A DNA stretch of 64,000 nt. Origin: Candidatus Poriferihabitaceae bacterium. Its GTDB lineage: Bacteria; Pseudomonadota; Gammaproteobacteria; Arenicellales; Poriferihabitantaceae. A model generated the notes under the pieces. That model ran no database searches. It was not told where the DNA came from and worked only from the letters and a program-made list of their open reading frames with translations. This document shows, piece after piece, positions 19,534 through 43,403 of the stretch (position 1 is the first letter of the stretch; each line of letters opens with the position of its first letter). Made by a program: the position numbers and the translations under genes. The stretch spans positions 1,161,019-1,225,018 of the forward strand of contig OZ251537.1 of the NCBI GenBank assembly GCA_965243285.1, read 5' to 3'.

Positions 19534-19534
19534 T

Positions 19535-21730: not shown

Positions 21731-21737
21731 TTCCAAT

Positions 21738-23962: not shown

Positions 23963-24098
23963 CCGGATGTTACTATGAAAGTCGATGATTTAAAAATTAA
24001 ACACGCTATTCAACTGTAATGTTGAAGTGCAGTGAGATGATTTTTTCACAAATTTATTGAGGGCTTTTCAAGCCCGGTTTTCAAACACTGATTCTCAC

Positions 24099-24248
24099 AT
24101 GCCAGATGATATCGAACTAAAAAAATACTTTAATGAAACCATGTTGAAAAATAATAAATCTTACGCTGGGGCATTGTTTGGAAAAGCCAAAGACATTTTA
24201 GCGATGAATAAACCGATGAAAAACCTGTCAAGTAATCCGCTCAAATAA
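24099..24248 (+). CDS. Hypothetical 49-aa hydrophilic peptide
   Basis: ATG-initiated part of ORF 24057-24248. Very AT-rich with no recognisable motif. Weak call. Confidence 0.2.
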   Translation: MPDDIELKKYFNETMLKNNKSYAGALFGKAKDILAMNKPMKNLSSNPLK

Positions 24249-24271
24249 ACGACGGTACTTTTTAAACCACC

Positions 24272-27070
24272 ATGACTTCCCTCAGCCTCGAAATAGACGG
24301 ATGCCACATTCCGGCCGAGGCCGGGGAGATGTTAATCGCGGCCACTGACCGCGCCGCGATCTATATTCCGCGGTTTTGTTATCACCCGGCGCTATCCATC
24401 GCGGCTAATTGCCGTATGTGTTTGGTGGAGGTGGAGGGCGCGCCTAAGCCGTTGCCGGCTTGTGCTACGCCGGTGGTCGCTGGCATGAAAGTGTTCACGC
24501 GCTCGGCACAGGCGCGCGAGGCGCAGCGCGGCACTCTCGAATTTTTGCTCATCAACCACCCGCTGGACTGCCCGGTGTGCGACCAAGGCGGCGAGTGCCC
24601 GTTGCAAGACCAAGCCATGGAATACGGCAGCGATGATTCGCGCTTTGGCGAGCGCAAGCGCGCCGTCGCCAGCCATGACATCGGGCCGCTGGTGGCCACC
24701 GAAATGACGCGCTGCATCCACTGCACGCGATGCGTGCGCTTTGGCGAGGAAATCGCCGGGGTGATGGAAATGGGCATGCCAGGGCGCGGAGAACACGCCC
24801 ACATCGGCACCTTTCTCAACCGCTCGGTGGATTCGGAAGTCTCCGGCAACATGATCGACCTGTGTCCGGTGGGGGCGCTGACCTCGAAGCCCTATCGTTT
24901 TGCGGCGCGCACTTGGGAGCTGCGCGACCATCGCGGCATTAGCCCGCATGATTGCGTCGGCGCCAACCTCAAAATCCAAACCTTGCGCGGGCAGGTCGAG
25001 CGCGTGTTGCCGCGCGAGCGCCCCGAGGTGAATCAATGCTGGTTAGCGGATCGCGAGCGCTATAGTTACCAAGCGGTCAACAGCGCGCAGCGCCTCAGCG
25101 CGCCCATGCTGAAAGACCGCGAACACTGGCGGCCGGCCGCGTGGGAGGAGGCATTGCGCTACGCCTGCGACGGCATCGGGCGCATCGTCGAGCACAGTGG
25201 CGGTGAGCAGTTCGCGGCGCTGGCGGGGCCGGCCGCCACCTTGCAGGAATACTACCTGCTGGCGAAATTGACGCGCGCCTTGGGCAGCCATCATGTCGAC
25301 CATCGCGCTACGCAACAAGATTTTCGCGATGATCGGTGGGCGGCGAGTTTTCCGGCCTCGGAATTGCCCATCGACCACTTCGGCAACCTCAAAGCGGCCT
25401 TGCTGCTTGGCGCCAACATCCGCAAGGAGCAGCCGTTGTTAGCGCTGCGATTACGCGCTGCGGTGCATGCCGCCGGCGGCGTTTATGCGCGCGGCGACCA
25501 GCCGGCAGCCCGCATCAGCAGCGTAAACCCCCTCGCCTATCCGCAAAATTTCACCCAGCAAAACGCCCTGGCAGTGGGCGCTGATTTGCCGGCCGCCTTG
25601 GCCGCCGTGGCCGCGGCCATCGCGCGCCTGGCTGAGGTCGACCTGCCGGACGACATCGCGCAGTGGGTCGAGGTCGAGAATCCCGCCAATTCGGCCGCCA
25701 ATTCCGCCCAAAAAGCCGCGCCGACCGGAAATCCCGCCGCTAATCTGGTTGCAGATTCCCTCGCAAATTCGGCCGATAAATCCGCCAAAAATATCGCCGC
25801 GCCGGCCGAAAATGCTGTCGATAAATCCACCCAAAATTCCGCCGGAAATGATGAAATTTCCACCACCGCCGACCACGCCATCGCCACCGCTGCCATAGCG
25901 CAAGATTTATGGACCGCGCGCGCCGATGGCGTGCTGATTCTCGGCGCCATCGCGCAGCAACATGCGGAGGCCAGCGTCATCAAAACCATGGCGCGGTGGA
26001 TTTGCCGCATCACCGACAGCCGCTTAGCGATTTTGCCGCCCGGCAACGGCGCCGCGGCCTGGCTGGCCGGCTGCGTGCCGCATCGCGCCGCCGGCGGTCG
26101 CGCCGCCCAACTGCCGGCGGCGCAATGCGGCCTCGATGCGGCCGCCATGTTCGCGCAGCCGCGCCGCGCCTACCTGTTGTTGGGCAGCGATCCGGCCTTA
26201 GACAGCACCGACGGCCAGCGCGCCAGCGAGGCCTTAGCCGGCGCCGATTTCGTAGTCTGCATCACCGCCTATAAAGATGATGATGCGGCGCGCTATGCCG
26301 ATGTATTGTTGCCCATGGCAGCGTTCACCGAAACCGCCGGCGACTTCGTCAATTGCGAAGGTCGGCTGCAGCACGCCGAGGCCGCCGCGGTGCCGTTGGG
26401 CGAGGCCCGCCCGGCGTGGAAAATTCTGCGGGTGCTGGCGAATTTCCTCGACCGGCCGGGTTTCGAGCAAGTATCTCTTGCTCAAGTGAGCGCGGAAATC
26501 GAACGCGCTGGGGTGCGCCCGGCGCGGCTGCAATCCCAGGTGACTCAGTCCCAGGCCTTCCACTCCGAAGCCGGCGATGCCGACGGCGCGCATGCCGGCG
26601 CGGCGGCGCTCGATGCGAAAATCCCCCCGCCGCGCCCCGCATCTACCGTCGGCCACGCCACGCGCTTGCTCGATATGCCCATGTATCGCGGCGACCAAAC
26701 CGTGCGCCACGCGGCCGCCCTGCAGCGCACCGCCGACTGCCCGCCGCCGGCGGCGCACATGAGCCGCGCCACTATCGACCGCCTCGGCCTGCGCGCCGGC
26801 GCGCCGGTGGTGGTGCGCCAAACGGCCATCCCAGACCGTCATGTTCGCCTGCCGTTGCGCGTCGATGAGCGCGTGCCGCAGGGCAGCGTCTATGTGCCGG
26901 CGGGGTTTGCGCGCACCGCGCCCCTCGGCGGCGGCGGCCGCGTCACGGTGACGGCGGCGCAGACTTCCGAACCCGAGGACGGCGACGCCCCGCTGGCGGA
27001 CATCACCGTCGCCAAAAACGCCGCCACCAAACGCCATCCACAGCGCCCGGTCGCGGCGAAAACAACATAA
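24272..27070 (+). CDS. nuoG: NADH-quinone oxidoreductase subunit G
   Basis: N-terminal 2Fe-2S/4Fe-4S cysteine clusters (CRMCLVEV, HPLDCPVCDQGGEC, CIHCTRCVRF, CPVGAL). Contains a long low-complexity insertion. Confidence 0.95.
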   Translation: MTSLSLEIDGCHIPAEAGEMLIAATDRAAIYIPRFCYHPALSIAANCRMCLVEVEGAPKPLPACATPVVAGMKVFTRSAQAREAQRGTLEFLLINHPLDCPVCDQGGECPLQDQAMEYGSDDSRFGERKRAVASHDIGPLVATEMTRCIHCTRCVRFGEEIAGVMEMGMPGRGEHAHIGTFLNRSVDSEVSGNMIDLCPVGALTSKPYRFAARTWELRDHRGISPHDCVGANLKIQTLRGQVERVLPRERPEVNQCWLADRERYSYQAVNSAQRLSAPMLKDREHWRPAAWEEALRYACDGIGRIVEHSGGEQFAALAGPAATLQEYYLLAKLTRALGSHHVDHRATQQDFRDDRWAASFPASELPIDHFGNLKAALLLGANIRKEQPLLALRLRAAVHAAGGVYARGDQPAARISSVNPLAYPQNFTQQNALAVGADLPAALAAVAAAIARLAEVDLPDDIAQWVEVENPANSAANSAQKAAPTGNPAANLVADSLANSADKSAKNIAAPAENAVDKSTQNSAGNDEISTTADHAIATAAIAQDLWTARADGVLILGAIAQQHAEASVIKTMARWICRITDSRLAILPPGNGAAAWLAGCVPHRAAGGRAAQLPAAQCGLDAAAMFAQPRRAYLLLGSDPALDSTDGQRASEALAGADFVVCITAYKDDDAARYADVLLPMAAFTETAGDFVNCEGRLQHAEAAAVPLGEARPAWKILRVLANFLDRPGFEQVSLAQVSAEIERAGVRPARLQSQVTQSQAFHSEAGDADGAHAGAAALDAKIPPPRPASTVGHATRLLDMPMYRGDQTVRHAAALQRTADCPPPAAHMSRATIDRLGLRAGAPVVVRQTAIPDRHVRLPLRVDERVPQGSVYVPAGFARTAPLGGGGRVTVTAAQTSEPEDGDAPLADITVAKNAATKRHPQRPVAAKTT

Positions 27071-27106
27071 TCCACACCACATGAGCGACAGCATGATCGA
27101 CGCCGC

Positions 27107-28156
27107 ATGATCGAAACCTTGTTTTTCAACCTCACCGCGTGGCTGCCGCACAACGCGCAAATCGCGCTGTGGACGCTGGCCAAAATCGCCGCCATTTTGG
27201 CGCCGCTCATGCTGTGCGTGGCCTATTTCACCTTCGCCGAGCGCAAGTTGATCGGCTATATGCAAATCCGCGTCGGCCCCAATCGCGTCGGCCCCCGGGG
27301 TTGGCTGCAGCCCATCGCCGACGCCCTCAAACTGATGATGAAGGAGATCATCATCCCCCATCGCGCCAACAAAATCTTGTTTTTGATGGCGCCGCCGCTG
27401 GCGCTGGCCCCGGCGTTAGCGGCGTGGGCCGTGGTGCCGTTCAGCGATTCATTAGTACTGGCGGACATCGACGCCAGCCTGCTGTATGTGTTGGCGCTCA
27501 CTTCCATGGGGGTATACGGGGTTATCGTCGCCGGCTGGGCGTCGAATTCCAAATACGCGTTTTTGGGCGCCATGCGCTCGGCGGCGCAGATAGTGGCGTA
27601 TGAAATCGCCATGGGGTTCGCCTTGGTGGGCGTGCTGATGGTGGCCGGCAGTTTGAATTTGCGCGACATCGTGTTGAGCCAATCCGGCAATTTGCTGCAC
27701 TGGCACTGGCTGCCGTTGCTGCCGTTATTTTTGGTTTATTTCATCTCCGGCGTAGCGGAAACCAATCGCTCGCCGTTCGATGTCGCCGAGGGCGAATCGG
27801 AAATCGTCGCCGGTTTTCATGTGGAATATTCCGGCATGGCCTTTGCGGTCTTCTTTTTGGCCGAATACGCCAACATGCTGTTGATCGCGGCGCTTACGGT
27901 ATTGCTGTTCCTCGGCGGCTGGCTGCCACCGTTCGAGACCGTGTATTTCACTTGGGTTCCGCCGGTGATGTGGTTCGGCCTCAAAACCTCGCTGGTGGCG
28001 TTTTTCTTTCTGTGGTTTCGCGCCACCTTTCCGCGCTATCGCTATGACCAAATCATGCGCCTCGGCTGGAAGGTGCTGATTCCCATCACCTTGGTGTGGA
28101 TAGTGGTCATCGGCATTGCTAAATTTCATACCCCATTCGGCGGCTTTTTTTCGTGA
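27107..28156 (+). CDS. nuoH: NADH-quinone oxidoreductase subunit H
   Basis: [23 protein letters not shown]...[26 protein letters not shown]. Confidence 0.95.
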
Positions 28157-28161
28157 CTTAC

Positions 28162-28245
28162 GAGGCTGATTTTGAGGCCGATTTTGGTGCCGATTTTGGT
28201 GCCGATTTTGATGATGGGTTTGAGGCCGATTTTGGTAATTCTGTT
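28162..28245. repeat. Seven tandem 12-nt units (consensus GRKGCCGATTTT) in the nuoH-nuoI spacer
   Basis: gaggctgatttt gaggccgatttt ggtgccgatttt ggtgccgatttt gatgatgggttt gaggccgatttt ggtaattctgtt. Confidence 0.9.
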
Positions 28246-28273: not shown

Positions 28274-28765
28274 ATGTACATAGACTTCAAACAACTCTAC
28301 AAAACCTTCACCCTCAAGGAATTGCGGCGCGGCATGTGGCTCACCGGGCGGCGGCTATTCAGCCGCAAAATCACCCTCATGTACCCACTGGAAAAAACGC
28401 CGAAATCGCCGCGCTTCCGCGGCCTGCACGCCTTGCGCCGCTACGCCAACGGCGAGGAACGCTGCATCGCGTGCAAATTGTGCGAGGCGGTCTGCCCGGC
28501 GCTCGCCATCACCATCGACTCCGAAGAACGCGCCGACGGCACGCGCCGCACCACGCGCTACGACATCGACTTGTTCAAGTGTGTGTATTGCGGTTTCTGC
28601 GAGGAAGCCTGCCCGGTGGATGCCATCGTCATGACCGACATCCACGAATTCCACATGGATGAAAATCATCAACGCATCATCGACAAATCGCGCCTGCTCG
28701 CCATCGGCGATAAATACGAACCGCAAATCGCCGCGGCGCGCCAGCAAGACGCGCCTTATCGCTGA
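28274..28765 (+). CDS. nuoI: NADH-quinone oxidoreductase subunit I
   Basis: Two 4Fe-4S motifs: [12 protein letters not shown] and [12 protein letters not shown]. Confidence 0.95.
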
Positions 28766-29784
28766 TGGCGATCGCCACGGCCGCCTGCGCGTCGCGCCCG
28801 ACTCAAAGCAAAGCGAGAGCGCCGCGCAACCGCACCTTGCATTGCGACGCAGCGGAGGCCGCAGCACTCGGCGCGCGCCTCACTACGCTGACGGCGCCGG
28901 TCGGCAGCCATGCCATCGACGCCATCGACGGCAAAATTATTCATCAAGATATTTTCGCCGCGGCGCAGTATTTGCCGGCCGCGTTCGTCGATTTGTTGAT
29001 TATCGACCCGCCGTATAACTTAACCAAAAATTACCACGGGCAACGGTTTTTGGAGAAAGAAAAACCCGAGTATGCCGCGTGGTTCGAAAGCATGCTGCGC
29101 TCGGTGATGCACACCCTAAAGCCCAACGCGTCGTTGTATGTGTGCGCCGATTGGCGAACATCCATTATCATCGCGCCGCTGCTGGAAAAATATTTCCAAG
29201 TAAAAAATCGCATCACCTGGGAACGCGAAAAAGGCCGCGGCGCCAAACTCAACTGGAAAAATAATTTAGAAGACATTTGGTTTTGCGTAACCGGCAACGC
29301 GTATTTTTTCAATGTGGATGCGGTTAAACTCAAAAGAAAAGTGCTGGCTCCTTATCGCCACAACGGCTTGCCCAAAGATTGGCGCATCGAGCGCGATGGC
29401 AACTATCGCTTGACCCATCCGTCCAATATTTGGACCGACATCTCCATTCCGTTCTGGTCGATGCCGGAAAACACCGACCACCCAACGCAAAAGCCGGAGA
29501 AATTGTTAGCTAAATTAATCTTAGCCAGCAGCCGGCCGGGAGATATGGTGTTCGACCCCTTCGCCGGCAGCGGCAGCACCGCCGTGACCGCGAAAAAATT
29601 ACGCCGCCGCTTTGTGTGCGTGGAACTCAACCGCGAATATTGCTGCTGGGGACAGAAGCGTTTGCAACAAACCTCGCCGGATGACCCCATACAAGGCTAC
29701 GCCAATAATGTGTTTTTGGAGAGGAACACGGCGCACAACCTCAAACATAAAAGCGCCGCATCCACGCAAAAAAAATTGTTATGA
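28765..29784 (+). CDS. Beta-class (N6A/N4C) DNA methyltransferase, cassette 2
   Basis: IIDPPYN, HPTQKP, DPFAGSGST. The only in-frame ATG shares its A with the nuoI TGA (TGATG). Confidence 0.85.
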   Translation: MAIATAACASRPTQSKARAPRNRTLHCDAAEAAALGARLTTLTAPVGSHAIDAIDGKIIHQDIFAAAQYLPAAFVDLLIIDPPYNLTKNYHGQRFLEKEKPEYAAWFESMLRSVMHTLKPNASLYVCADWRTSIIIAPLLEKYFQVKNRITWEREKGRGAKLNWKNNLEDIWFCVTGNAYFFNVDAVKLKRKVLAPYRHNGLPKDWRIERDGNYRLTHPSNIWTDISIPFWSMPENTDHPTQKPEKLLAKLILASSRPGDMVFDPFAGSGSTAVTAKKLRRRFVCVELNREYCCWGQKRLQQTSPDDPIQGYANNVFLERNTAHNLKHKSAASTQKKLL

Positions 29785-30449
29785 AATCCTCTTTTTTCTA
29801 CGGCGCTCGCAGCGCCGAAGCCGCGGCAAAAATACAGGCCGCCAGCAACACTGAACCAACTTTTCTTTCCGCCATAACTGCCCACAGCCCGCGCGCGGTG
29901 GGCGATGCTACGCAATCGCTGGTGGAGAAAAAATTTGAGTCCATCATCGGCGATTGGTGTGCTGAATATTCATCATCATTCGCGCGCCGAGCAATGGCCG
30001 ATTTGGGTTTGAGGATAAGCCAAGATTTTTATTGCATAGTTGATGTGAAAACCCATCGACTTGACACTACATTCAACATGCCTGCGCTCGTTTCGGTCAA
30101 GCGATTAGCGCGTTTTTATGAAGATGACATGAATGTATTTTCTATTCTCATGATCAAGTACGAAATAATTGATAACCGCATGCAAGTTAATGAAGTTATT
30201 TTTCTGCCTATAGAGTTTTTGGATTGGAGTTGTCTCACAGTAGGGGCGCTTGGGTGGGGGCAAATACAAATCGCCAATTCCAACAACATTGTTATTCGTC
30301 ACGGTCAATCTAGAAAAACCTGGATGCTTTCTTTGTGTGATGTATTGCAAGAATTTTACCCAAAAGAAATTTTGAAAATCACCGAGCGAGTAAATGAATT
30401 CAACAAAGTTAAATCGTATTGGCATAACAAGCCCGACCTTTGGACTTGA
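29781..30449 (+). CDS. Putative Type II restriction endonuclease, cassette 2
   Basis: ATGA overlap with the methylase stop. Possible PD-(D/E)xK core (...ADL...CIVDVKTH...). AT-rich. No other recognisable family. Confidence 0.55.
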   Translation: MKSSFFYGARSAEAAAKIQAASNTEPTFLSAITAHSPRAVGDATQSLVEKKFESIIGDWCAEYSSSFARRAMADLGLRISQDFYCIVDVKTHRLDTTFNMPALVSVKRLARFYEDDMNVFSILMIKYEIIDNRMQVNEVIFLPIEFLDWSCLTVGALGWGQIQIANSNNIVIRHGQSRKTWMLSLCDVLQEFYPKEILKITERVNEFNKVKSYWHNKPDLWT

Positions 30450-30461
30450 TGCGCAAATCAC

Positions 30462-30932
30462 ATGCGCGCTTGCAATCCCCGCCCACCACAAACCACCAAA
30501 GCCATGTCAACCTCCCCCACCTCCCCCACCCAATATCTTATTCGCGCTGATGGCGATTCCATCGTGAGTTATTTGTATTATGTGACCGACCCCTACCATG
30601 AGCATGATATTGAGTACTGCTGGGGCACGCATCACACCTATGGGTTTTTATACGCCAGCGAAGCCGAAGCGGCGGCCGATTTAGCCGGCCTGCCGCAACA
30701 CGCGCACCCGAAAGTGATTACCTATGAGCAAGCGGCGGCCGAACACATCGGCGAGGCAGCTAATTTTCCATTCAACATAAAATCCATGCTCACTGACGAA
30801 GAACATGCCGAACGCGTGCGTCGCGATATCAGCGGCGAACCCGACCCCGAGGATGAAGATTATGACTATGACGGGGATTTTGAAGAACCCTATGAGGAAG
30901 ACCTCACCCGCCAGAAAAGTTTTTTGGATTAA
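30462..30932 (+). CDS. Hypothetical protein with strongly acidic C-terminus
   Basis: The tail ...GEPDPEDEDYDYDGDFEEPYEEDL... follows the R gene. The start could also be MSTSPTSP at 30504. Confidence 0.45.
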   Translation: MRACNPRPPQTTKAMSTSPTSPTQYLIRADGDSIVSYLYYVTDPYHEHDIEYCWGTHHTYGFLYASEAEAAADLAGLPQHAHPKVITYEQAAAEHIGEAANFPFNIKSMLTDEEHAERVRRDISGEPDPEDEDYDYDGDFEEPYEEDLTRQKSFLD

Positions 30933-31820: not shown

Positions 31821-32126
31821 ATGATTCCTCTGTCTTATTATCTCGCCCTCGGCGCGGCGCTGTTCGCCATCAGCGTGGTGGGGATTTTTCTCAACCGCAA
31901 AAATGTGGTCATCTTATTGATGTCGCTGGAGTTGCTGCTGTTAGCGGTGAATATGAATTTCGTCGCCTTCTCGCATTTTTTAGCCGACCCGGCCGGGCAA
32001 ATATTTGTGTTTTTTATCCTAACCGTGGCCGCCGCCGAAGCCGCCATCGGCCTCGCCATCCTCATCGTGCTATTCCGCAGCCGCCGCACCATCAATGTGG
32101 AAGAACTCGATTCGCTTAAAGGGTAA
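31821..32126 (+). CDS. nuoK: NADH-quinone oxidoreductase subunit K
   Basis: ...[18 protein letters not shown]...[23 protein letters not shown]... Confidence 0.95.
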
Positions 32127-32128
32127 TG
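32089..32128 (+). repeat. Direct repeat copy 1 (nuoK 3' end, att-like)
   Basis: CCATCAATGTGGAAGAACTCGATTCG is identical (26/26) to 37293-37318. The similarity continues through the stop codon with 2 mismatches and a 1-nt indel. Confidence 0.9.
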
Positions 32129-32136
32129 GAGTGGTC

Positions 32137-33465
32137 GTGAAACCGCCTGTGAAGTCGCCCCTAAAATCGCCTGTGGCATTGCCTATGGTGGCGACAAACA
32201 CGCCGCGCATCGTCAAGTTTTCCGGCGGGCGTTCTTCCGGTATGATGTTGATGGAATTGTTGCAAGGCGGGAAACTCGAGCCGAAGCGTGGCGATGTCAT
32301 CGTGTTTAACAACACTTCTGCGGAACACCCCGCCACCTATGAGTTCACCCGCCGCATGAAATCATTAGCCGAGGAAAAATATAACATTCCATTTTTTTGG
32401 GTCGAATATCAAACCTATGAAGACGCCGGCAAGCACGGCTGGCAGCGCTTGCCGAGCTATCGGTTGGTGAACCATACGCCGTATAGCAAAAAAAATATTC
32501 ATGGCTATCGCCGCAAAGGCGAAGTGTTTGAGGAATTAATTTCCGCGTCCGGTTATCTGCCGAACATGCAACGCCGCACCTGCACCCACGCATTAAAAAT
32601 CTTCATCACCAATTCATTTTTGGCGGATTGGCTGGCGCAAAAAAGCGGCATCGAGCGCATGGGCCATTTTGGAGACGCATCCAGACTCACCGATGCAACA
32701 CTTATCGAAGCGCATCAAAAAAATGGCGGTGGCGTGCCGCCAAATATACTAATCAAGAAACGGCAATTCGCCCGTGGGATGCCATTCATCCGCCCGGCGG
32801 CGATGTGGCAAGATTTCACCGCTGCGCGCTTGTGTTTTCGCAATAATGAAATCAAACACTGCGTGAGTGGCCGCAAAGGGCGGCTATTTGGCACTCGCGC
32901 TATTTCCTATGTTTCCTATCTCGGCATTCGCAAAGATGAAGAGATTCGCATGGTCAAAATACAAGATAGAATACACGCCGCCGCCACCGCCCGTGGCGGC
33001 TCTATGTTCGGCCAGCCGCCGGGTGAACAAGTGTTAGCGCCCCTGGTCGATAACAAAACAACCAAACTGCAGGTGGCAGAATACTGGCGCCGCCAACCCT
33101 TTAATTTGCGCCTGCCCGAGAGCGGCGACTTCTCCAACTGCGTATACTGCCCACTCAAGGGCAAAACCAAATTACTACAAATCGCCAAACAAGAATCAAG
33201 CGGCAAAATAAACGCCCGTGGCACCCCCGCATCTATCAACTGGTGGGTAAAAATGGAACAAAAATATAGCCGCAATTTGGTGGATGAAAAACGCACAGTC
33301 AAATCATCGAATAAAATCAAGTACATCGGGTTTTTCGGCGCCTCCCAGAAGCACGTTTACGCTGGCATCAAAAAACAAACCCAAAAGACCAACTCGCCGA
33401 CCGATGCATTAAAAGCCGAGTTTTTAGAAGATGAAAATTACATTCCATGCAACTGCACGGATTGA
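32137..33465 (+). CDS. PP-loop ATP pyrophosphatase of the PAPS-reductase/DndC-like family
   Basis: KFSGGRSSG (PP-loop SGGxxS), ...RRTCTHALKI..., YLGIRKDEEIRM, APLVD...VAEYW, and the C-terminal cysteines CVYCPLKG / CNC. Start chosen at GTG 32137 (GGAG 5 nt upstream). ATG 32185 and ATG 32095 (inside nuoK) are alternatives. Confidence 0.75.
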   Translation: MKPPVKSPLKSPVALPMVATNTPRIVKFSGGRSSGMMLMELLQGGKLEPKRGDVIVFNNTSAEHPATYEFTRRMKSLAEEKYNIPFFWVEYQTYEDAGKHGWQRLPSYRLVNHTPYSKKNIHGYRRKGEVFEELISASGYLPNMQRRTCTHALKIFITNSFLADWLAQKSGIERMGHFGDASRLTDATLIEAHQKNGGGVPPNILIKKRQFARGMPFIRPAAMWQDFTAARLCFRNNEIKHCVSGRKGRLFGTRAISYVSYLGIRKDEEIRMVKIQDRIHAAATARGGSMFGQPPGEQVLAPLVDNKTTKLQVAEYWRRQPFNLRLPESGDFSNCVYCPLKGKTKLLQIAKQESSGKINARGTPASINWWVKMEQKYSRNLVDEKRTVKSSNKIKYIGFFGASQKHVYAGIKKQTQKTNSPTDALKAEFLEDENYIPCNCTD

Positions 33466-33513
33466 TTTTTATCCTGATCACCCCACCCAACGACCCACAT
33501 CACAACTTAAATC

Positions 33514-35397
33514 ATGTCAGTACTATATTTTAGATTAGGCCCAATGGACGGTTTCACTGCTATGGATTCTGCCGATAAAAAAGGGGGGTTTGCCACCCCG
33601 ATTCGCGAGTTGTTGCAAAACAGTATAGACGCCGTCCGTGAAACCGGTGAAAAGTCATGCAAAATCAACATCTATCTTGAAAATATTGCCACAGATAGAA
33701 TTCCCCACCTAGATGAGTACAAAAAAGTACTGCAACAAGCCATAACAACAGCGAAAAACCGTAGCGAAACTAATGACGATGGAAGTTTTAACGCCAGTAC
33801 GGCGCAACAAGTGGAGGCCATAAAAGGTGCGCTGGCTAACAAAGAACAACCCATGTTGCTTTTTTCCGATAACGGCGTCGGTATGCCGCCCAACCGCCTA
33901 AACGCCATGTTTTTACGTGGCGTGAGCATCAAGCGCGATGAAGGGTCGGTCGGCTCTAGGGGTGTTGGGCATTTATCAAGCTATGCACTATCTGCGTTGC
34001 GTTATGTTTTATATGCCACCAAATATATAGACAACGGCCGTACACAAACGCTGTTCACGGGTTCGCCGATTTTGGCTGGCCATAAAGATGAATTTGGCTT
34101 CGACCGAGGTAAGCAAGGGTGCATCCTCCGTAATAAACCTGAAGAAGAAAAGTCACCTGAATTTAACTACCCTGCCACCACCCCGTCTGGCATGGAATTT
34201 ATCGCCGACAAAATACAGTCGTTAGACCACGGTACTTTGGTATGCATATTGGGGCTAAATAATGCGTGGGATGAAGATGCCGAATACGTCATCGTCAGCA
34301 ACTATTTCCATGCCATCAAGTACGCCGGCTTAGATGTGACTATCCATAAAGATCACGACAGTAAAACCATATCTTGCACCGATATCGATAAATTGGTGGC
34401 GGGCCGTAAAGATCAACCCAACAAGCAAGGAGATGCAATATTGTCTGGCAAAGCCGTACATCAAGCTTGGCTGGCAGTTAAGGAAGACAAAAACCGTCAC
34501 GAAATTATCTTAGATGACCACAATAAGGTAGACGTTTTCATAAAAACAGACTCCGATGCGGACACCACCATTGTTTTGGTCCGCAGTGGCATGGTTGTCG
34601 CTCGCCATGATTGCATGTTGTCAAATCACATGATGCAATTACGAAACAATACTAAATTCGAGCCGTTCACTGCGGTTATCAATGTTACCGTCCATGATGC
34701 GAAACCGTTGTTTGAGTTGGTAAAAGGATCTGAAAGCGCCTATCACAATAAACTGGAAGCATCCGAGATTAGCAAAGTCAAGAAAAATGAATTAAGAGGT
34801 TTGCTGAAAGATCTCAGCGAGAAAATTAAACTACATTTAGTTCCTGTTAATCGCAAATCTTTTGATTTTCCGATGTTTCGGGTACACAACCGCGAGCAGG
34901 CGCACACCACCGGCACCGGTAGTGGTGCGGGGCAAAGCATCATTGCCACGCCCACTCGTCGACCGCGTGACCCTCGACATGGTCAGCGCACCAAACAAAA
35001 AACTTCAGGGCGTCTGGTGCCGACTATCCCGAACCGCAATTTATCAGTTAAAGCCGCTTCTCGATATACTGACATCGGCGATAAATGGATTGTTCGTTTG
35101 AATGTCACGATGCCCGCCGACAAAAAATCTAACGACGATGTTTATCTGTTTTTCTCATTGAACGAAGACACCGACGGTGCATCAAATCTAACCCCTTTGT
35201 CTCTTGGGAAAGTCACAGTGAATAGCAAAGACATGGGGAAAATCGCCCCAGCAACGCCCCTTGAACTAACTGGTTTGCATGCAGGCCAACTCACCGAAAT
35301 CGAAGCTGAAGTGATGAAGCCCGCAGGCATTGGCAATATGAAAACCGCCCTGATGTCAACTTTTCGCTTAAAAAAACGCGAACTCAAAAAGGTGTGA
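33514..35397 (+). CDS. GHKL (Bergerat-fold, MORC/Hsp90/MutL-like) ATPase with large uncharacterised C-terminal region
   Basis: N box IRELLQNSIDA, G1 box FSDNGVGM, G2 box GSVGSRGVGHLS. Confidence 0.75.
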   Translation: MSVLYFRLGPMDGFTAMDSADKKGGFATPIRELLQNSIDAVRETGEKSCKINIYLENIATDRIPHLDEYKKVLQQAITTAKNRSETNDDGSFNASTAQQVEAIKGALANKEQPMLLFSDNGVGMPPNRLNAMFLRGVSIKRDEGSVGSRGVGHLSSYALSALRYVLYATKYIDNGRTQTLFTGSPILAGHKDEFGFDRGKQGCILRNKPEEEKSPEFNYPATTPSGMEFIADKIQSLDHGTLVCILGLNNAWDEDAEYVIVSNYFHAIKYAGLDVTIHKDHDSKTISCTDIDKLVAGRKDQPNKQGDAILSGKAVHQAWLAVKEDKNRHEIILDDHNKVDVFIKTDSDADTTIVLVRSGMVVARHDCMLSNHMMQLRNNTKFEPFTAVINVTVHDAKPLFELVKGSESAYHNKLEASEISKVKKNELRGLLKDLSEKIKLHLVPVNRKSFDFPMFRVHNREQAHTTGTGSGAGQSIIATPTRRPRDPRHGQRTKQKTSGRLVPTIPNRNLSVKAASRYTDIGDKWIVRLNVTMPADKKSNDDVYLFFSLNEDTDGASNLTPLSLGKVTVNSKDMGKIAPATPLELTGLHAGQLTEIEAEVMKPAGIGNMKTALMSTFRLKKRELKKV

Positions 35398-35401
35398 GAC
35401 C

Positions 35402-36286
35402 ATGTCCGAGAAACTAATTTTAGATTTCCCCGTCCTGAATATCGACAGCGGCGATTTTAATGAATGTGTAAATTATAAAGTCACCGCCGTGCGAGACGAT
35501 AAAAATATTAACATAACGCACACGTTAAGCGGCGCATCTTTCATACAAAATTTGGTAAAAGATAAGCGCGCAGTTTTTTCGGTTCTATTGGTTTATCAAA
35601 ATAGCTCAGAGCGGCAGATATGTCTATGCAAAAATTTTGAACTCGCCGGCGATTCGATAATCGCCATCCAAACCATACCGTTGAAATTTTCCTATGCGCC
35701 GAAAATAAAGCCGAGCATCGTGCTAAAGGAGTCACAAACTATCGTAGTAGACTACGCTGCGGGCTTGACCGGTTTTTGGCAACATGGTGAGCGTTTTGAT
35801 GTTCCCGCATTGGCGCGCCTCGCTGTCGGCGAGGTGTTGCAATTTTCGGACGGCGGCTTATCGTCATTAATGAGGATCGAACTCGATACAAACTTGTCCG
35901 AAGGCGAAATGAAAACTATCGTTTATGAGCAAGCCGGCGAAGGCGACATACCGGTGACTTTGCTCTGCGGGGAAGGCGTGTTTTCGCATCTACAATCAGT
36001 CACAGGAAAAAAACCACCCACCAACCCCGTCGAAGCCGCACGCTCCGCCATCATTACCCAAGCACTATGCGCAGTGTATGCCTACATGTACAAACTATCC
36101 GCCAAAGAACAAAAATCATCCACCGAGGAAAAATCGGGCGGCGTGTTAAATGCTCACTTGGATAGCATGATTGAAAAAAATCCGTCTTTGAATTGGAATA
36201 ATGAAAATTTTGACCCGAGTTGGGCGGCCACCGTGATGAATCCTTATGCGGTGCGTGCTATCGCCATGGAGATGAACAATGATTGA
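35402..36286 (+). CDS. Hypothetical protein (cassette gene 3, no recognisable motif)
   Basis: Starts 4 nt after the GHKL gene stop. 294 aa. Codon usage resembles its neighbours. Confidence 0.6.
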   Translation: MSEKLILDFPVLNIDSGDFNECVNYKVTAVRDDKNINITHTLSGASFIQNLVKDKRAVFSVLLVYQNSSERQICLCKNFELAGDSIIAIQTIPLKFSYAPKIKPSIVLKESQTIVVDYAAGLTGFWQHGERFDVPALARLAVGEVLQFSDGGLSSLMRIELDTNLSEGEMKTIVYEQAGEGDIPVTLLCGEGVFSHLQSVTGKKPPTNPVEAARSAIITQALCAVYAYMYKLSAKEQKSSTEEKSGGVLNAHLDSMIEKNPSLNWNNENFDPSWAATVMNPYAVRAIAMEMNND

Positions 36287-37268
36287 GTATCAAAAATTTG
36301 ACGAGGCGAAGTGGTTGGCTTTTGGCAAAAGGTTATTACCCACTGTCGCCAAACTAAACTTATCCAGTGAGCAAGTAGAGTTTTTGGAGGCATGTCGAGA
36401 TGGTCAAGCGGCTTTTTTGGATTATTTGGACACCCATTTTCTCTATGAAAAAGGGGCTGTCGTTGGCCAAAAAGTTGTGCCTTTTCGGTACAAATTCAGT
36501 GAAAATGAATTTTTCCTGATCAGCACCAAAGATACCCAAAAAATTATCTGGGATGGCTTCAAGGCGGTGGATGAGGAAACCAAATTTTCATGCGGATTTT
36601 GGGGCTATATCATCGTAGAAATGCTGAAAAACGGTGCCATCGAAAAACCCAGCGATTTAGCATCCACCAAAAACATGACTGGGCATGCGCACATAGATGA
36701 TGCACTCGCCGGCACCCCGAAAAATGTAGACGACTGCGTTAGAAGAATTTTACGCTCCATGTGCAATTCGAAAGCAAGGGGGCATCGAATTATTTTCTAT
36801 GATTTTCCTTTGGGGAGAACTTATTGGCGATGGCATTGGGCGCATAAGATGGCTGGGTATGAAATGCCCGTGGATGAGTTATCTGCGCATGGACTGTCCA
36901 TACATGATAAGAGCGCTGATATTAACTTAGATTTTGCACAAGTGTTGGCGGCATTGGATATGTCTAATTATCGAGTATTTGCTGAAAAAATGCATACCGG
37001 AAGAAGTTTTATCAGCGCCCCGAACATCCTCGGTGGGCTGTTACTATTTTTGGCGCATTCTGATAAGTCGAATAAGGTTAACAACATCGGCATCATCATC
37101 GACCGATTGGCTTATTTGAGTTCATGGAAGGCTATCGAGTTGCAATCGCCGGCCGATAATCAACTCGAGATAGAAGCCATCGCCGACAACCTCGCCGCCC
37201 ATCCGCCCACCAAACAGCCCATCAAACCCGCCACCGAACAATCCGCCGCCGGCTCCACCCGACCCTAG
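36279..37268 (+). CDS. Hypothetical protein (cassette gene 4, no recognisable motif)
   Basis: 8-nt overlap with gene 3 (ATGATTGA). 329 aa. Pro/Ala-rich tail. Confidence 0.6.
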   Translation: MIEYQKFDEAKWLAFGKRLLPTVAKLNLSSEQVEFLEACRDGQAAFLDYLDTHFLYEKGAVVGQKVVPFRYKFSENEFFLISTKDTQKIIWDGFKAVDEETKFSCGFWGYIIVEMLKNGAIEKPSDLASTKNMTGHAHIDDALAGTPKNVDDCVRRILRSMCNSKARGHRIIFYDFPLGRTYWRWHWAHKMAGYEMPVDELSAHGLSIHDKSADINLDFAQVLAALDMSNYRVFAEKMHTGRSFISAPNILGGLLLFLAHSDKSNKVNNIGIIIDRLAYLSSWKAIELQSPADNQLEIEAIADNLAAHPPTKQPIKPATEQSAAGSTRP

Positions 37269-37292
37269 CCTCGTCGCCCTATTCCCAGCCGC

Positions 37293-37331
37293 CCATCAAT
37301 GTGGAAGAACTCGATTCGTTGAAGGGTGATG
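37293..37331 (+). repeat. Direct repeat copy 2 (displaced nuoK 3' end)
   Basis: Encodes ..INVEELDS.. as nuoK does. A 1-nt deletion puts the homologous stop (TGA versus TAA) out of frame. Confidence 0.9.
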
Positions 37332-37350
37332 TTGATTTTCTCTCCGCTCC

Positions 37351-37419
37351 GCTTTCGCTTTTCGCTGCTACGCTTCACCCTCCCCGCTTAACCTGGATAA
37401 ATTAAGTCAAAACTGACTT
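37351..37419 (+). repeat. Decayed copy of the class II two-hairpin module
   Basis: cgcttttcgctgctacgcttcaccctccccgctta...aagtcaaaactgactt aligns with 47853-47910 of copy C (cgcttttcgctgttacgctttactccccccgcttta...gagtcaaaactggcgg). Confidence 0.55.
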
Positions 37420-37714
37420 ATTCCGACCAGCGCGCTTAAACCTCGCATGGATTTCCCTAAATCCTTAGTCCATCACCCCAAAACAAACCCCCCATAAATC
37501 CCCCATAAACCCACGCAAACACGCCATTCCACCTAAAATTCCCCTCAATCACCCAAAATTTCCCTCCCAACCCTCATAAAAGTGCATAATCCGCCGCCGC
37601 AAACTCCCGAGCCACCACGGACGCCGCCAGCGGCAAATTCGGCTGGGTGATAATGATGTATCAAAACACCCGCAACGAAAAAGGGCCAGAATCATCCCCG
37701 CTGATGATGTCTAT

Positions 37715-37773
37715 TGTCAATTAATCGACATCTTTATCGCCGTCCGTTGACAAGCAAACGGGGAGTGTATAAT
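37715..37773 (+). promoter_or_regulatory. Sigma70-like promoter with upstream near-palindrome for R-M cassette 3
   Basis: TTGACA (37747-37752) and TATAAT (37768-37773) with a 15-nt spacer, 37 nt before ATG 37811. The near-palindrome TGTCAATT/AATCGACA at 37715-37730 shares the TTGACA half-site. Confidence 0.45.
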
Positions 37774-37810
37774 ATTAAAACTTCGCCTAAACAAACAACC
37801 AATTCCCACA

Positions 37811-38776
37811 ATGAACAATCCCGACTTAAACGAGTCAAGTGCTGAAGACTCCAGCAACCACGTTCCAGCGAAACACAGTTTTGCGGTGCGTAGCGGCAAA
37901 AAAGTGTATGAAGGATTCAACGCAGAACGCAAGGTTCGCAACCGCAAAGCGAAAGAGCAAAAGCGTTTGGGCTATGAGGCGTTTAGCAAAGATTTTCCGA
38001 ATGAAAATCATCCACTGCCGCAAAAATTCACCGACAAAATTATCACCGGCGATAGTGCGCAAGTATTAAAAAAACTGCCCGCCAATTGCATTGACTTAGT
38101 GATGACTTCGCCGCCGTATAATTTCGGCTTAGACTATAGCGAACATGTTGACACCGATACTTGGCATGCTTATTTTGATAAACTTTTCTTGGTATTTGCT
38201 GAGTGCATTCGTGTCGTAAAACATGGCGGGCGAATCATCGTTAATGTCTCGCCACTATTTTCAGATTACATTCCCACGCATCATTTTGTTAGCAAGTTTT
38301 TTATTGATCAAGGGTTGATTTGGAAAGGTGAAATTTTGTGGGAAAAAAATAACTACAACTGTAAATACACCGCTTGGGGCAGTTGGAAAAGCCCGTCCAG
38401 CCCATACCTTAAATACACATGGGAATTCTTAGAAATTTTTTGCAAGGGTGATTTAAAGAAACCCGGCGAGCGTGCCAACATCGACATTACCGATGATGAG
38501 TTTAAAAAGTGGGTGAATGCCAAATGGTCGATTGCCCCCGAACACAAAATGAAAAAATACGGTCACCCGGCCATGTTTCCAGAGAAATTGGTGATGCAAG
38601 CGTTGAAATTGTTTAGTTTTCAAGGCGACATTGTGCTGGACCCTTTCAATGGAGCAGGCACAACGACTTCGGTTGCGCATCAATTCCAACGGAAATATCT
38701 TGGCATCGATACATCATCTGAGTATTGCAAAATCGCTGAAAACAGAATTATCGATAACGGAGGAATTTTTAAATGA
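37811..38776 (+). CDS. Beta-class DNA methyltransferase (SPPY motif; N4-cytosine or N6-adenine), cassette 3
   Basis: MTSPPYN, HPAMFPEKL, DPFNGAGTT. Long basic N-terminal extension. Confidence 0.85.
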   Translation: MNNPDLNESSAEDSSNHVPAKHSFAVRSGKKVYEGFNAERKVRNRKAKEQKRLGYEAFSKDFPNENHPLPQKFTDKIITGDSAQVLKKLPANCIDLVMTSPPYNFGLDYSEHVDTDTWHAYFDKLFLVFAECIRVVKHGGRIIVNVSPLFSDYIPTHHFVSKFFIDQGLIWKGEILWEKNNYNCKYTAWGSWKSPSSPYLKYTWEFLEIFCKGDLKKPGERANIDITDDEFKKWVNAKWSIAPEHKMKKYGHPAMFPEKLVMQALKLFSFQGDIVLDPFNGAGTTTSVAHQFQRKYLGIDTSSEYCKIAENRIIDNGGIFK

Positions 38777-39477
38777 ACACAGAACAAGAATTGCGCGAAA
38801 TTATCGGCGAATACAACACCGTTGTTAAAGTCGTTGATAAGGATGCCAAAGAAAGCGAAGACCATGCGTACGGCGGTTTTGTTCGTGAGGTAAAAGGAAA
38901 ACTACAGGAGCACATCACCGAATCGCTTATTATGGCTGCGTGGAATTCTGTAGGTGGCGACCCAGAGGTGTTAGAAATTAACAGCAAAAAAATATCCATC
39001 CCTATTAAGGAAGAATACCTTGACCGAATCGAAGATGACGAAGTTAAGAAGCATATCGCCCAAAATATAGATAACTATATTTACAAATTATCAGTTGATA
39101 AGCATGTTTTTGTCAACGGTGAATTTGTCATTGGCATTGAATGCAAGGCATTTACGGAAAACGCCATGATCAAAAGAATTTTGCTCGATTTTGATTTGCT
39201 AAAAACCCAGTATCCGAATTTATTATGCTATTTATTTCAATTAGAAAGTCAACTTGGCGGCGATTACAGAAAATTAACTAAACCAATTTTTGGCAGTCAC
39301 TCAACGCGAACTTTGCAATCATATTTTTCATGCGACTTAACTATTGTTACGCTGCTTGAAGGCGAGAGAGATATTGAACGGGCAATTCATAAGCCTGGGT
39401 GTTTTAAGGAATTGAACCTAGAGGTATTGCAAGATACAGTACATATTCTCGCCAAAGACATGCGGCAATTTTCGTAA
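38773..39477 (+). CDS. Putative Type II restriction endonuclease, cassette 3
   Basis: ATGA overlap with the methylase stop. Candidate PD-ExK core (SVDKHVF...VIGIECKA). AT-rich. Confidence 0.6.
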   Translation: MNTEQELREIIGEYNTVVKVVDKDAKESEDHAYGGFVREVKGKLQEHITESLIMAAWNSVGGDPEVLEINSKKISIPIKEEYLDRIEDDEVKKHIAQNIDNYIYKLSVDKHVFVNGEFVIGIECKAFTENAMIKRILLDFDLLKTQYPNLLCYLFQLESQLGGDYRKLTKPIFGSHSTRTLQSYFSCDLTIVTLLEGERDIERAIHKPGCFKELNLEVLQDTVHILAKDMRQFS

Positions 39478-39627
39478 GGATTATGCTTAAAGTATATCCA
39501 CCCAATGCAAATCAAGCAGTCACTGCATCCATCCGTTGCAAAACCGGCGATAAAGCCCCGTGCAGTAAAATGCACCGGGTGGAGTCATTAATACACCAAC
39601 GGAAAGTGCTCATTTTCGGTCACCACC

Positions 39628-39661
39628 GCCCCGCCTCGTCCATTCGGGCGGGGCTTTTTTT
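39628..39661 (+). terminator. Rho-independent terminator just upstream of nuoL
   Basis: GCCCCGCC-loop-GGCGGGGC followed by T7, 36 nt before the nuoL ATG. Confidence 0.75.
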
Positions 39662-39697
39662 GCTTAAAATCCCCCCCCAAACCTCCACCCCATCCCC

Positions 39698-41659
39698 ATG
39701 AAAACCATCTACCTCGCCATCCCCCTCATCTGCCTAGTCTCTTCCATACTCATCGGACTGTTTGGGCGGCGGATGGGGCGTGTTGGGGCGCATTCTATCG
39801 CCATCGCCGGGGTGGCGGCGGCGTTTGTGTTATCGCTGGTGGTGTATGTGGATGTGCGCGCTGGCAATTATTTCAATGATGTGATTTATACCTGGGCGGT
39901 GAGCGACAATGTGCCGCTGAATATCGGTTTTTTGATCGACCAACTCAGCGCCATGATGATGGTGGTGGTCACTTTCGTGTCGTTGATGGTGCACATCTAC
40001 ACCATCGGCTATATGGCTGGCGACCCCGGCTATCAGCGTTTTTTTTGCTACATCTCGCTGTTTACTTTCGCCATGTTGATGTTGGTGATGGCGAACAATT
40101 TTATGCAGTTGTTTTTCGGCTGGGAGGCGGTGGGTTTAATTTCATACCTATTAATTGGTTTTTGGTATGAACGCGACAGCGCTATTTTTGCCAACCTCAA
40201 AGCATTTTTAGTCAACCGCGTGGGTGATTTTGGCTTCCTGCTCGGCATCGCCGCGGTCATGGCATTATTCGGCTCGCTGGATTACGCCGCGGTGTTCGCC
40301 GGCGCCGACGGCATGCGCGAGCAGACCGTCGCCACCCCGTTCGGCGAGTGGAAGTGGATCACCATCATCTGCCTATTGTTATTCGTCGGCGCCATGGGCA
40401 AATCGGCGCAAGCGCCGTTGCATGTATGGCTGCCGGATTCCATGGAGGGACCCACCCCCATCTCGGCGCTGATTCACGCCGCCACCATGGTCACCGCCGG
40501 CATCTATATGGTGGCGCGTATGTCGCCGTTGTTCGAGTTATCGGAGACGGCTTTATCGGCGGTGCTCATCATCGGCGCCACTACCGCCATGCTCATGGGG
40601 TTGGTGGGCTTAGTGCAAAACGACATCAAGCGCGTGGTGGCGTATTCCACCTTATCGCAGTTGGGCTATATGACCGTGGCGTTAGGCGCATCGGCCTATC
40701 AGGTGGCGATTTTTCATCTCGGCACGCACGCCTTTTTCAAGGCGTTGCTGTTCCTCGCCGCCGGCTCGGTCATCATCGCCATGCATCATGAGCAAGACAT
40801 GCGAAAAATGGGCGGGCTTAAATCGCTGATGCCGGTCACTTATATAACCGCCGCCGTCGGCTCCTTGGCGCTGGCCGGCATCCCCCCCTTCGCCGGCTTT
40901 TTCTCCAAAGACGCCATCATCGAAGCCACCCGCCACAGCGCCATCTGGGGCGCCGGTTATGCCTATGTCATGGTGCTACTCGGCGTATTCGTCACCGCCT
41001 TATATGCATTTCGATTATTGTTTATGACCTTCCACGGCAAAAATCGCTCGGCGCCGCACATCCGCCGCCAGTTGCGCGAACCACCGGGCGTGGTCACCTG
41101 GCCGCTGGTGGCGCTGGCCATCCCCTCGCTGTTGGTCGGCGGAATGTTTTTCGAAGCCGTTATCGATGGCAGTTTTTTCGGCGATGCAATTCGCGTCGCC
41201 CCGCAGCATGATGTGATGGCGCAACTCGCCGCCGTAAACCCAGACAAACATGGCATAGCGTTGATCTTCGCCACCTTACTGCACAGCGTATTAGCGCCGC
41301 CGCTGTGGTTGGCGGCCGCTGGCATCGGCTGCGCCTGGTATGGCTATTGCAAGAGTCCGGCCTGGCCGGGGCGCGTAAAAACCGCCTCCGGGCCACTCTA
41401 TCACCTGCTGAAAAACAAGTATGGATTCGACGCCCTGTACCAAGTGCTATTCGCGCGCGGCTCGGTGGCGCTCGGGCACTTTTTATCGGCGCGTATCGAT
41501 GGCGGCATGGTGGATGGCTTCATCGTAAACGGCACGGCGCGCGCGGTGGGGCTATGCGCCGGCGCCATGCGCACCATCCAAACCGGTCTCACCTATCACT
41601 ACGCATTCGTGATGATCGTTGGCCTGTTTTGTATGATCACCTATTTCGTGTGGTGGTAG
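39698..41659 (+). CDS. nuoL: NADH-quinone oxidoreductase subunit L
   Basis: ...FFGWEAVGLISYLLIGFW...GKSAQAPLHVWLPDSMEGPTPISALIHAATMVTAG... Confidence 0.95.
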   Translation: MKTIYLAIPLICLVSSILIGLFGRRMGRVGAHSIAIAGVAAAFVLSLVVYVDVRAGNYFNDVIYTWAVSDNVPLNIGFLIDQLSAMMMVVVTFVSLMVHIYTIGYMAGDPGYQRFFCYISLFTFAMLMLVMANNFMQLFFGWEAVGLISYLLIGFWYERDSAIFANLKAFLVNRVGDFGFLLGIAAVMALFGSLDYAAVFAGADGMREQTVATPFGEWKWITIICLLLFVGAMGKSAQAPLHVWLPDSMEGPTPISALIHAATMVTAGIYMVARMSPLFELSETALSAVLIIGATTAMLMGLVGLVQNDIKRVVAYSTLSQLGYMTVALGASAYQVAIFHLGTHAFFKALLFLAAGSVIIAMHHEQDMRKMGGLKSLMPVTYITAAVGSLALAGIPPFAGFFSKDAIIEATRHSAIWGAGYAYVMVLLGVFVTALYAFRLLFMTFHGKNRSAPHIRRQLREPPGVVTWPLVALAIPSLLVGGMFFEAVIDGSFFGDAIRVAPQHDVMAQLAAVNPDKHGIALIFATLLHSVLAPPLWLAAAGIGCAWYGYCKSPAWPGRVKTASGPLYHLLKNKYGFDALYQVLFARGSVALGHFLSARIDGGMVDGFIVNGTARAVGLCAGAMRTIQTGLTYHYAFVMIVGLFCMITYFVWW

Positions 41660-43210: not shown

Positions 43211-43403
43211 ATATATGTATGTTTATATTTATATCGATATCGATATCGATATCGATGTTGATATGTTATCGATAATGTATCGATGATATATCGATGTTGA
43301 TGTTGATGTCGATGTCGATGTTTATGTCGATATTGATATTTATATCGATGACAATGCCCATATCGATATTGATATCGATATAAATATCGACAACTTTGAT
43401 TTA
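43211..43403. repeat. AT-rich hexamer-periodic microsatellite built of ATCGAT/GATATC-type palindromes (nuoM-nuoN spacer)
   Basis: ...tatcgatatcgatatcgatatcgatgttgatatgttatcgataatgtatcgatgatatatcgatgttgatgttgatgtcgatgtcgatg... Confidence 0.9.

Follow-up and report, generated by a model that had tools for sequence, protein, structure and literature searches.

A duplicated nuoK 3' end around a four-gene cassette in a complex I operon: a candidate scar of recombinase-independent insertion

Why does the 3' end of nuoK, a gene of the respiratory complex I operon, occur twice in a Candidatus Poriferihabitaceae genome, with about 5.1 kb of foreign genes between the two copies? The locus lies in a 64-kb stretch of contig OZ251537.1 (the window; all coordinates are window positions) from a genome of 2.79 Mb. 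The nuo operon of the window reads on the + strand and is interrupted by foreign, co-oriented gene units. Its order is nuoB, nuoC, nuoD, two methyltransferase-type genes, nuoE, nuoF, nuoG, nuoH, nuoI, a first restriction-modification unit (RM1), nuoJ, nuoK, the four-gene cassette, a second restriction-modification unit (RM2), nuoL, nuoM and nuoN. A preliminary description of the window had read the duplication as att-like, the pattern left by a site-specific recombinase acting at the nuoK 3' end. We think it somewhat probable that both copies were left as a scar by a recombinase-independent insertion, which put a promoter-less, defence-type cassette of four genes behind nuoK. The upstream copy is simply the end of nuoK, and the downstream copy is a non-functional scar. 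The following features are needed for the argument.

31821 to 32126, + strand: nuoK, NADH-quinone oxidoreductase subunit K, 101 aa, intact, stop codon TAA (Pfam Oxidored_q2, E=2.8e-29).
32063 to 32128, + strand: repeat copy 1, the last 21 nuoK codons, the stop and an overlapping ATG; core at 32089-32114, probable start near 32037.
32185 to 33465, + strand: cassette gene 1, PP-loop / PAPS-reductase-like (PHROG 424, E=5.6e-29; weak PADLOC matches to SspD, 1.5e-5, and BrxP, 5.6e-4).
33514 to 35397, + strand: cassette gene 2, GHKL-type ATPase, PADLOC candidate PDC-M33A (E=3.4e-18; weak Pfam HATPase_c_3 match).
35402 to 36286, + strand: cassette gene 3, conserved protein of no assigned function, present in all cassette copies.
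36279 to 37268, + strand: cassette gene 4, conserved protein of no assigned function; the last ~20 codons are window-specific and the final codons are former nuoK sequence.
37269 to 37331, + strand: repeat copy 2, a decayed nuoK-tail relic with 3 insertions or deletions (indels) in its secure part; core at 37293-37318, ending in a TGA that overlaps an ATG.

An exact 26-nt core, CCATCAATGTGGAAGAACTCGATTCG, is present in both copies, and in copy 2 it begins 24 nt past the stop codon of cassette gene 4. No third copy was found in the window, even with 3 mismatches allowed, and collections of metagenome contigs and viral contigs gave 0 exact matches. Homology is secure between 32063-32128 and 37269-37331 (8 difference events in 65 columns) and probably reaches back to 32037 and 37241, for about 92 nt in all; the extended alignment has 74 matches, 10 mismatches and 7 gap events. 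The duplication previously put at about 40 nt is therefore real, with its 26-nt core exact, and it is longer than was thought, at least 63 nt and probably about 92 nt. A chance match or an error of assembly is a practically negligible explanation, refuted already by shuffles and alignment scores. The local alignment of the two copies scores 81 against a shuffle maximum of 26-29, a second 26-mer match appeared in 0 of 100 shuffles, the relic lies exactly at the cassette boundary, and analogous relics are present in independent assemblies. What can be said for chance concerns the leftmost ~25 nt of the extended alignment, which are GC-rich and of low complexity and add about +1 to the score by hand tally.

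The two copies differ in what they encode. Copy 1 had been described as the functional end of nuoK, and the intact gene with its TAA stop bears this out; the encoded protein is 89% identical to the NuoK of a sister locus (L081). Past the core, copy 2 has a 1-nt deletion and 2 substitutions relative to copy 1, which leave its TGA out of frame, just as the preliminary description stated. It is a frameshifted, decaying relic of the last ~21-30 codons of nuoK, with a TGA stop and overlapping ATG. Its probable homology start near 37241 falls inside cassette gene 4, and a C-terminal extension of ~20 aa in the gene 4 product, found in the window only, reads into the relic. The relic thus adjoins the cassette and has overwritten part of the gene 4 end. 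Neither an Rfam match nor a terminator-like site was found at 37269-37331 that would make the relic a structured RNA or terminator. A crossover within the core would remove the cassette and leave a NuoK with a 27-residue C-terminal extension, not a wild-type end.

Relatives with an empty nuoK-nuoL site, which the preliminary description had proposed to look for, do exist. Species representatives were taken from 80 genomes, all of which lack the cassette; nuoL was kept on the retrieved contig in 79, and the nuoK-nuoL gap is 6-197 nt in 78 of these. The closest genome, L089 (circular, 2.77 Mb, NuoL 82% identical), has a true empty site. In both L089 and L090, nuoK overlaps nuoL by 4 nt (ATGA) and no second nuoK-tail copy is present; at ~82% identity to the window in nuoK DNA, neither is of the same species. 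Since a single nuoK tail abuts nuoL in relatives without the cassette, the duplication is tied to the cassette insertion as its by-product. The two copies bracket the low-GC unit exactly. Two tail copies in a genome without the cassette, which would have spoken against this link, were found in neither L089 nor L090.

We consider it quite improbable that the duplication is unrelated to cassette entry, whether as an independent small tandem duplication or gene-conversion patch at nuoK/nuoL, with the cassette landing between the copies afterwards, or as a relic that came with RM2 from a donor whose nuoK was followed by RM2. For such an origin it can be said that the relic stands at the boundary of two independent units, the cassette and RM2, that its end matches the allele of sister locus L084, and that another sister locus, L082, shows that tail-plus-cassette units can stack. 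However, the empty sites carry no pre-existing junction duplication, RM2 homologues lie outside nuo operons, and nothing like RM2 or the spacer in front of it was found in the nuo loci of the clade. Furthermore, the relic is physically tied to the four-gene cassette, since it adjoins the end of gene 4 and has overwritten it.

The cassette itself is foreign, since its GC content is 45-52% (43-48% from the 3' part of gene 1 through gene 4) against 57-65% for the nuo genes. The order of genes 1 to 4 is kept in every homologous locus recovered (L081-L088 and L092-L108, about 25 cassettes), and gene 2 has 139 homologues. The start of gene 1 at 32185 agrees with the N-termini of its homologues (MVATNTPRIVKFSGG versus MNAPHIVKFSGG), and its reading frame is open upstream to 32095. 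Gene 3 gave no match in Pfam, PHROG, NCBIfam, PADLOC or PDB. The cassette is probably an uncharacterised DNA-modification or defence module. It was not found in phage, viral-contig or plasmid collections, and the literature search yielded nothing on PDC-M33, on a system of PAPS reductase plus GHKL protein, or on defence genes inside nuo operons. No repeats flank the distant copies of the cassette, which lie after serS in L083 and in the marine loci L092-L099. The marine copies (e.g. L093 739-972, L095 325-561) have an extra conserved small gene upstream of gene 1, ~77 aa (MESKEDKFKRLANARVNNAIKQL...), that is absent from the nuo-embedded copies.

The preliminary account of an att-like integration raises the question of a recombinase. 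No integrase or transposase was found in the window cassette with Pfam, PHROGs, NCBIfam or PADLOC, and the ~25 homologous cassettes contain no recombinase. Genes 3 and 4 were considered as hidden recombinases and gave no signal in Pfam, PHROG, NCBIfam, PADLOC or PDB at lenient thresholds. The open reading frame (ORF) at 49559-50545 is the only recombinase among the large ORFs of the window; it had been named as the sole tyrosine recombinase, 12 kb away, and it proved to be a generic Xer-like protein in another neighbourhood. Other mobile elements were rejected as well. The repeat, at 63-92 nt, is not the short target duplication of a DDE transposon or insertion sequence, and there is neither a bracketing inverted repeat nor a transposase; for an integron gene cassette, there is no adjacent integrase, no attC-like inverted repeat at the cassette ends and no Rfam match. 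A tRNA target was also dismissed, the only tRNA being a distant tRNA-Leu at 14600-14686.

The sister loci show the same cassette and slot with other repeats. Related loci are coded L081-L108. The four-gene cassette sits between nuoK and nuoL in L081, L082, L084, L085 and L087, and the short contig L088 shows the cassette and its boundaries only. These nuoK-nuoL loci hold the closest homologues of the window cassette (gene 2 55-58% and gene 1 ~73% identical), and none of them has a nuoK-tail relic. In them, a copy of the lineage's own nuoL head, 15-24 nt long, comes after the nuoK stop: ATGAAAAATATCTAC in L081 (8594-8760 and 13639-13693), ATGAAAAATATCTACCTCGCGAT in L082 (6926-7069) and ATGAAACACATCTAT in L084 (1542-1595 and 6690-6746). 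In L088 (1-130 and 5030-5108) the repeat is perfect over 24 nt on both sides. The left nuoL-head copy opens a conserved 15-codon leader ORF (e.g. MKNIYLAIYRIIMSR, then a stop) that ends just 5' of gene 1. No significant nuoL-head relic was found in the window, where the left junction is instead a 12-nt tandem repeat. The sister repeats do not share the window 26-mer, and the cassette ends are unlike between the window and the sister loci.

A third target was found in L082. Its nuoI-nuoJ slot contains a first methyltransferase gene, a nuoI-tail relic of 59-63 nt, a second, diverged methyltransferase start and a C5-methyltransferase unit that is homologous (74%) to the slot allele of L090. In this relic (1105-1230 versus 2710-2823) an alternative allele is still encoded intact. 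Here too, a tail relic of the upstream gene lies between two stacked units, as it does in the window. When all nuo heads and tails of seven loci were scanned systematically, no junction duplications turned up other than these three: nuoK tail, nuoL head and nuoI tail.

These data bear on the view that the cassette is a non-autonomous integrative element, similar to a cis-mobilizable element (CIME), with a tyrosine or serine integrase encoded elsewhere, the 26-nt core as the identity between attL and attR, and a nuoK end supplied by the element. Such an origin is possible, though we hold it to be unlikely. It would account for a perfect core between diverged flanks, for a live nuoK end unlike that of all relatives beside a relic that keeps the ancestral-type TGA/ATG end, for sister cassettes at exactly the same position with a precise lineage-matched repeat and a clean empty site, and for a cassette phylogeny that is incongruent with the nuo genes. 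However, none of the ~25 cassettes has an integrase inside it or beside it, and the nuoK-tail and nuoL-head repeats share no sequence, so that related elements do not show the same att core. Because the nuoI tail is a third target, used by different cargo, three dedicated specificities would be needed. The variable repeat lengths (15-24, 59-63 and 63-92 nt), the unlike cassette ends and the 26-mer without a match in the metagenome and viral collections also speak against an integrase. These observations do not support the proposal of site-specific integration.

Integrase-borne genomic islands and prophages integrate at the 3' ends of genes or tRNAs, which they restore; CIMEs are their integrase-less derivatives. 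The nuoK cassette resembles them in its flanking direct repeats, one completing the gene and the other being the displaced end, and in the way new units stack upstream of older ones with repeat copies between them. It differs in that no integrase is present, the core is not common to the sister cassettes, the gene ends vary by lineage and slot, and the repeat varies in length and has a core flanked left and right by degenerate homology.

Three targets, variable repeat lengths and differing cargo argue for a general process and not for several integrases, and they suggest, by analogy with known cases, insertion with long target duplication as this recombinase-independent process. Nobusato and colleagues reportedly described insertion with long target duplication of restriction-modification units in 2000 (Gene 259:99). 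In the class as later defined, restriction-modification units are flanked by direct repeats of more than 30 bp and of variable length, the insert is shorter than 20 kb and without mobility genes, and one repeat copy is present in the empty genome (Furuta, Abe and Kobayashi 2010, PMC2853133). Most cases come from naturally competent species, in one of them the repeat overlaps the 3' end of a gene, and the mechanism is unexplained, with double-strand breakage as a suggestion (PMC2853133).

The nuoK locus has many of these properties. A compact defence-type unit of less than 20 kb, without integrase, transposase or other mobile-element genes and with deviant GC content, is bracketed by direct repeats of more than 30 bp, which differ in length from case to case and are far longer than transposon target duplications. 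The relatives with an empty site (~82% identical in nuoK DNA) have a single copy, and the repeat can overlap the 3' end of the neighbouring gene. Unlike the published class, the site lies inside an essential, co-transcribed operon with the insert co-oriented, the repeat leaves an essential gene in frame, and no same-species empty site is available for the window. Because neither a restriction nor a modification gene lies between the repeats, RM2 being outside them, the feature is class-like while falling outside the restriction-modification-only definition. It would add a case to a type of insertion scar that is already known, here with cargo other than restriction-modification genes and inside an essential operon.

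How could such an insertion have proceeded? It would have duplicated the last ~63-92 nt of nuoK together with the stop and the overlapping ATG. The upstream copy would then complete the working nuoK, and the downstream copy would be the displaced earlier end, now decaying and left between the new cassette and the resident RM2. The most likely route would be recombination of incoming DNA from a related genome, with one end anchored by homology in nuoK and the other joined illegitimately inside the nuoK tail of the recipient, so that the donor tail would become the live end and the recipient tail the relic. As a variant, a single homologous crossover may have taken place in the 26-nt identical stretch. 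RM2 would have come first and the four-gene cassette second. The enzymology, the order of events and the imported origin of the live 3' end are all inferred from sequence comparison.

A panel alignment of nuoK ends agrees with the route in which the donor tail is live and the recipient tail a relic, on few sites: the comparison of the live with the relic end rests on fewer than 20 informative nt. At both of its ends the relic has the states of the relatives, with GAA TCC where the live gene has GCC, and its TCG TTG AAG GG-TGA is the L084 allele minus 1 nt; the TGA is then followed by ATG. Its centre has window-specific synonymous states (CTA, AGC, AAT GTG, CTC). In the live gene, the final 12 nt (CTT AAA GGG TAA) are unlike those of all relatives. 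The earlier proposal that the element entered a 3' end and brought a replacement end stands to the extent that the relic keeps an ancestral-type end and the live end is unusual, and is limited by the small number of sites.

Several points weigh against a recombinase-independent scar. An att core would predict a perfect core between diverged flanks, and the 26-nt core amid its diverged flanks is mildly non-random (P ~0.004-0.11, by indel counting). In the sister loci, the nuoL-head repeat begins precisely with the ATG and both copies match their own lineage, which would also fit a site-specific system. Within the source genome, the searches for an integrase and for the 26-mer covered the 64-kb window out of 2.79 Mb. 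Genes 3 and 4 have no assigned function and their single-sequence AlphaFold models are too low in confidence to use (predicted local distance difference test, pLDDT, of 38 and 35), so they may have a novel recombination function. The published class was defined for restriction-modification units, and the unit bracketed here is not one. Finally, the window lineage has neither a same-species empty site nor a same-species donor, so the event is not directly reconstructable; in a cluster look-up the source genome had no relatives at 90% protein identity, every protein being a singleton.

The cassette also appears to move between lineages. Between L081 and L082, identity is 92% for gene 1 and 85% for gene 2 against 73-85% for the nuo proteins; between the window and L081, it is 57-73% for the cassette against 75-89% for the nuo proteins. 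Because cassette and host phylogenies disagree, these sequences indicate that the cassette is exchanged among lineages at the nuoK-nuoL slot. One European Nucleotide Archive (ENA) sample, ERZ28747376, is the source of both L081 (occupied) and L090 (empty), which form a natural occupied/empty pair. Their nuoK and nuoL DNA is 98.0% and 97.4% identical, respectively, and 200-nt blocks are 94-100% identical up to both junctions. The same pair carries non-homologous methyltransferase cassettes in the nuoI-nuoJ slot, an allele swap.

Integration hotspots and defence islands are exchanged by homologous recombination in flanking core genes. The nuo loci are like them in having fixed slots between core genes, with non-homologous defence cargo in near-identical strains (L081/L090) and no mobility genes. 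They differ in that the slots are junctions within one operon (nuoD/E, nuoI/J and nuoK/L) whose genes normally overlap or abut, that the cargo runs in the direction of the operon and seems to be coupled to its expression, and that gene-end relics mark the junctions. A broader proposal, which we regard as doubtful, is that the nuo gene junctions of this clade are a dedicated platform for defence cassettes at which the adjoining head or tail is duplicated. Units that lack a promoter or are self-contained would enter the nuoD/E, nuoI/J and nuoK/L junctions, stack there and be swapped between strains that are nearly identical, by a recombinase-free mechanism or through a trans-acting enzyme. The essential genes would stay intact, the cargo would be coupled to operon expression, and the gene-end relics would be analogous to integron cassette boundaries.

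The expression of the cassette and the region downstream of the relic involve the following features.

32126 to 32184, + strand: leader between nuoK and cassette gene 1, a 4-codon mini-ORF (ATG GAG TGG TCG TGA) followed by a tandem repeat.
37332 to 37810, + strand: non-coding C/A-rich spacer with a strong promoter-like TTGACA ... TATAAT at 37747-37776.
37811 to 39477, + strand: RM2, a Type II restriction-modification unit outside the repeats and 3' of the relic, with an N6/N4 methyltransferase gene (37811-38776) and a restriction endonuclease gene (38773-39477).
39633 to 39664, + strand: strong terminator-like hairpin with a T-run (T7), inside the operon and 35 nt before nuoL.
39698 to 41659, + strand: nuoL, displaced 7.5 kb from nuoK (Pfam Proton_antipo_M, 1.3e-80).

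The leader contains a chain of overlaps, first the nuoK TAA with the ATG of the mini-ORF and then the mini-ORF TGA with a GTG at 32137, which may be a chain of translational coupling. Its tandem repeat has a period of 12 nt (32137-32175, Tandem Repeats Finder). No convincing promoter belongs to the cassette itself, which is probably expressed by read-through and coupling. The site at 37747-37776 is a near-consensus sigma-70 promoter-like site just 5' of the RM2 methyltransferase gene, which makes RM2 look like an independent transcription unit inside the operon. RM2 was recognised by Pfam (N6_N4_Mtase, 1.1e-37) and PADLOC (MTase_II, 3e-65; REase_II, 1.7e-94). One relative of its endonuclease is annotated as 'Candidatus Spongiihabitans sp.'. 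RM2 as a nuoK-adjacent slot allele elsewhere was rejected: its relative in L091, a methyltransferase and endonuclease pair, sits between a PALP-enzyme gene and mutM. An annotated 72-aa ORF (39483-39701) overlaps the hairpin and is probably spurious.

Two other slots of the operon are also filled. The nuoD/nuoE slot (18503-21737) holds an N6/N4-type methyltransferase and a 731-aa protein similar to Type I methyltransferases and MAD2. The nuoI/nuoJ slot (28765-30932) holds a methyltransferase, a HincII-like candidate restriction endonuclease and a 156-aa protein without assigned function; this methyltransferase is common to the window, L089 and L081 (72-74% DNA identity). No junction duplications were found at either slot, in agreement with the initial remark that the other cassettes of the window have none comparable. 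The nuo spacers are filled with short tandem repeats (17030-17206, 27062-27114, 28162-28236, 32137-32175, 43231-43390 and 45155-45247), mostly with periods of 6, 12, 15 or 24 nt, such as GAGGCCGATTTT x6 and ATATCG x27. The leader of cassette gene 1 belongs to these arrays, and genes that are separated by such spacers in the window overlap or abut in relatives. The window nuoG (24272-27070) encodes 932 aa, against 804-829 aa in relatives, and has a very GC-rich stretch (75% at 26500-26999); nuoF and nuoG are 620 nt apart, with a low-GC gap at 23650-24271. The excess length and the gap may be further insertions or remnants. The window also contains an MttB-family methyltransferase gene (3466-5274) and genes for two giant He_PIG/HYR-domain autotransporters (6252-11990 and 52966-63909). 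Taken with the Spongiihabitans annotation, these genes suggest a gammaproteobacterium of the sponge-symbiont type.

If the two nuoK tails are the scar proposed here, insertion accompanied by long target duplication, or a process like it, would not be limited to restriction-modification genes. It would have brought a different module of defence type into the interior of an essential respiratory operon and left that operon unbroken. The unusual architecture, in which the junctions of the complex I operon would serve as exchangeable slots for defence genes with cargo that differs between strains whose flanks are ~97-98% identical, is a more interesting lead than the single scar. The L081/L090 pair and the relics provide concrete material for the mechanism. 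Read-through expression and protection against deletion are possible reasons why an essential operon would be a favoured home for such cassettes.

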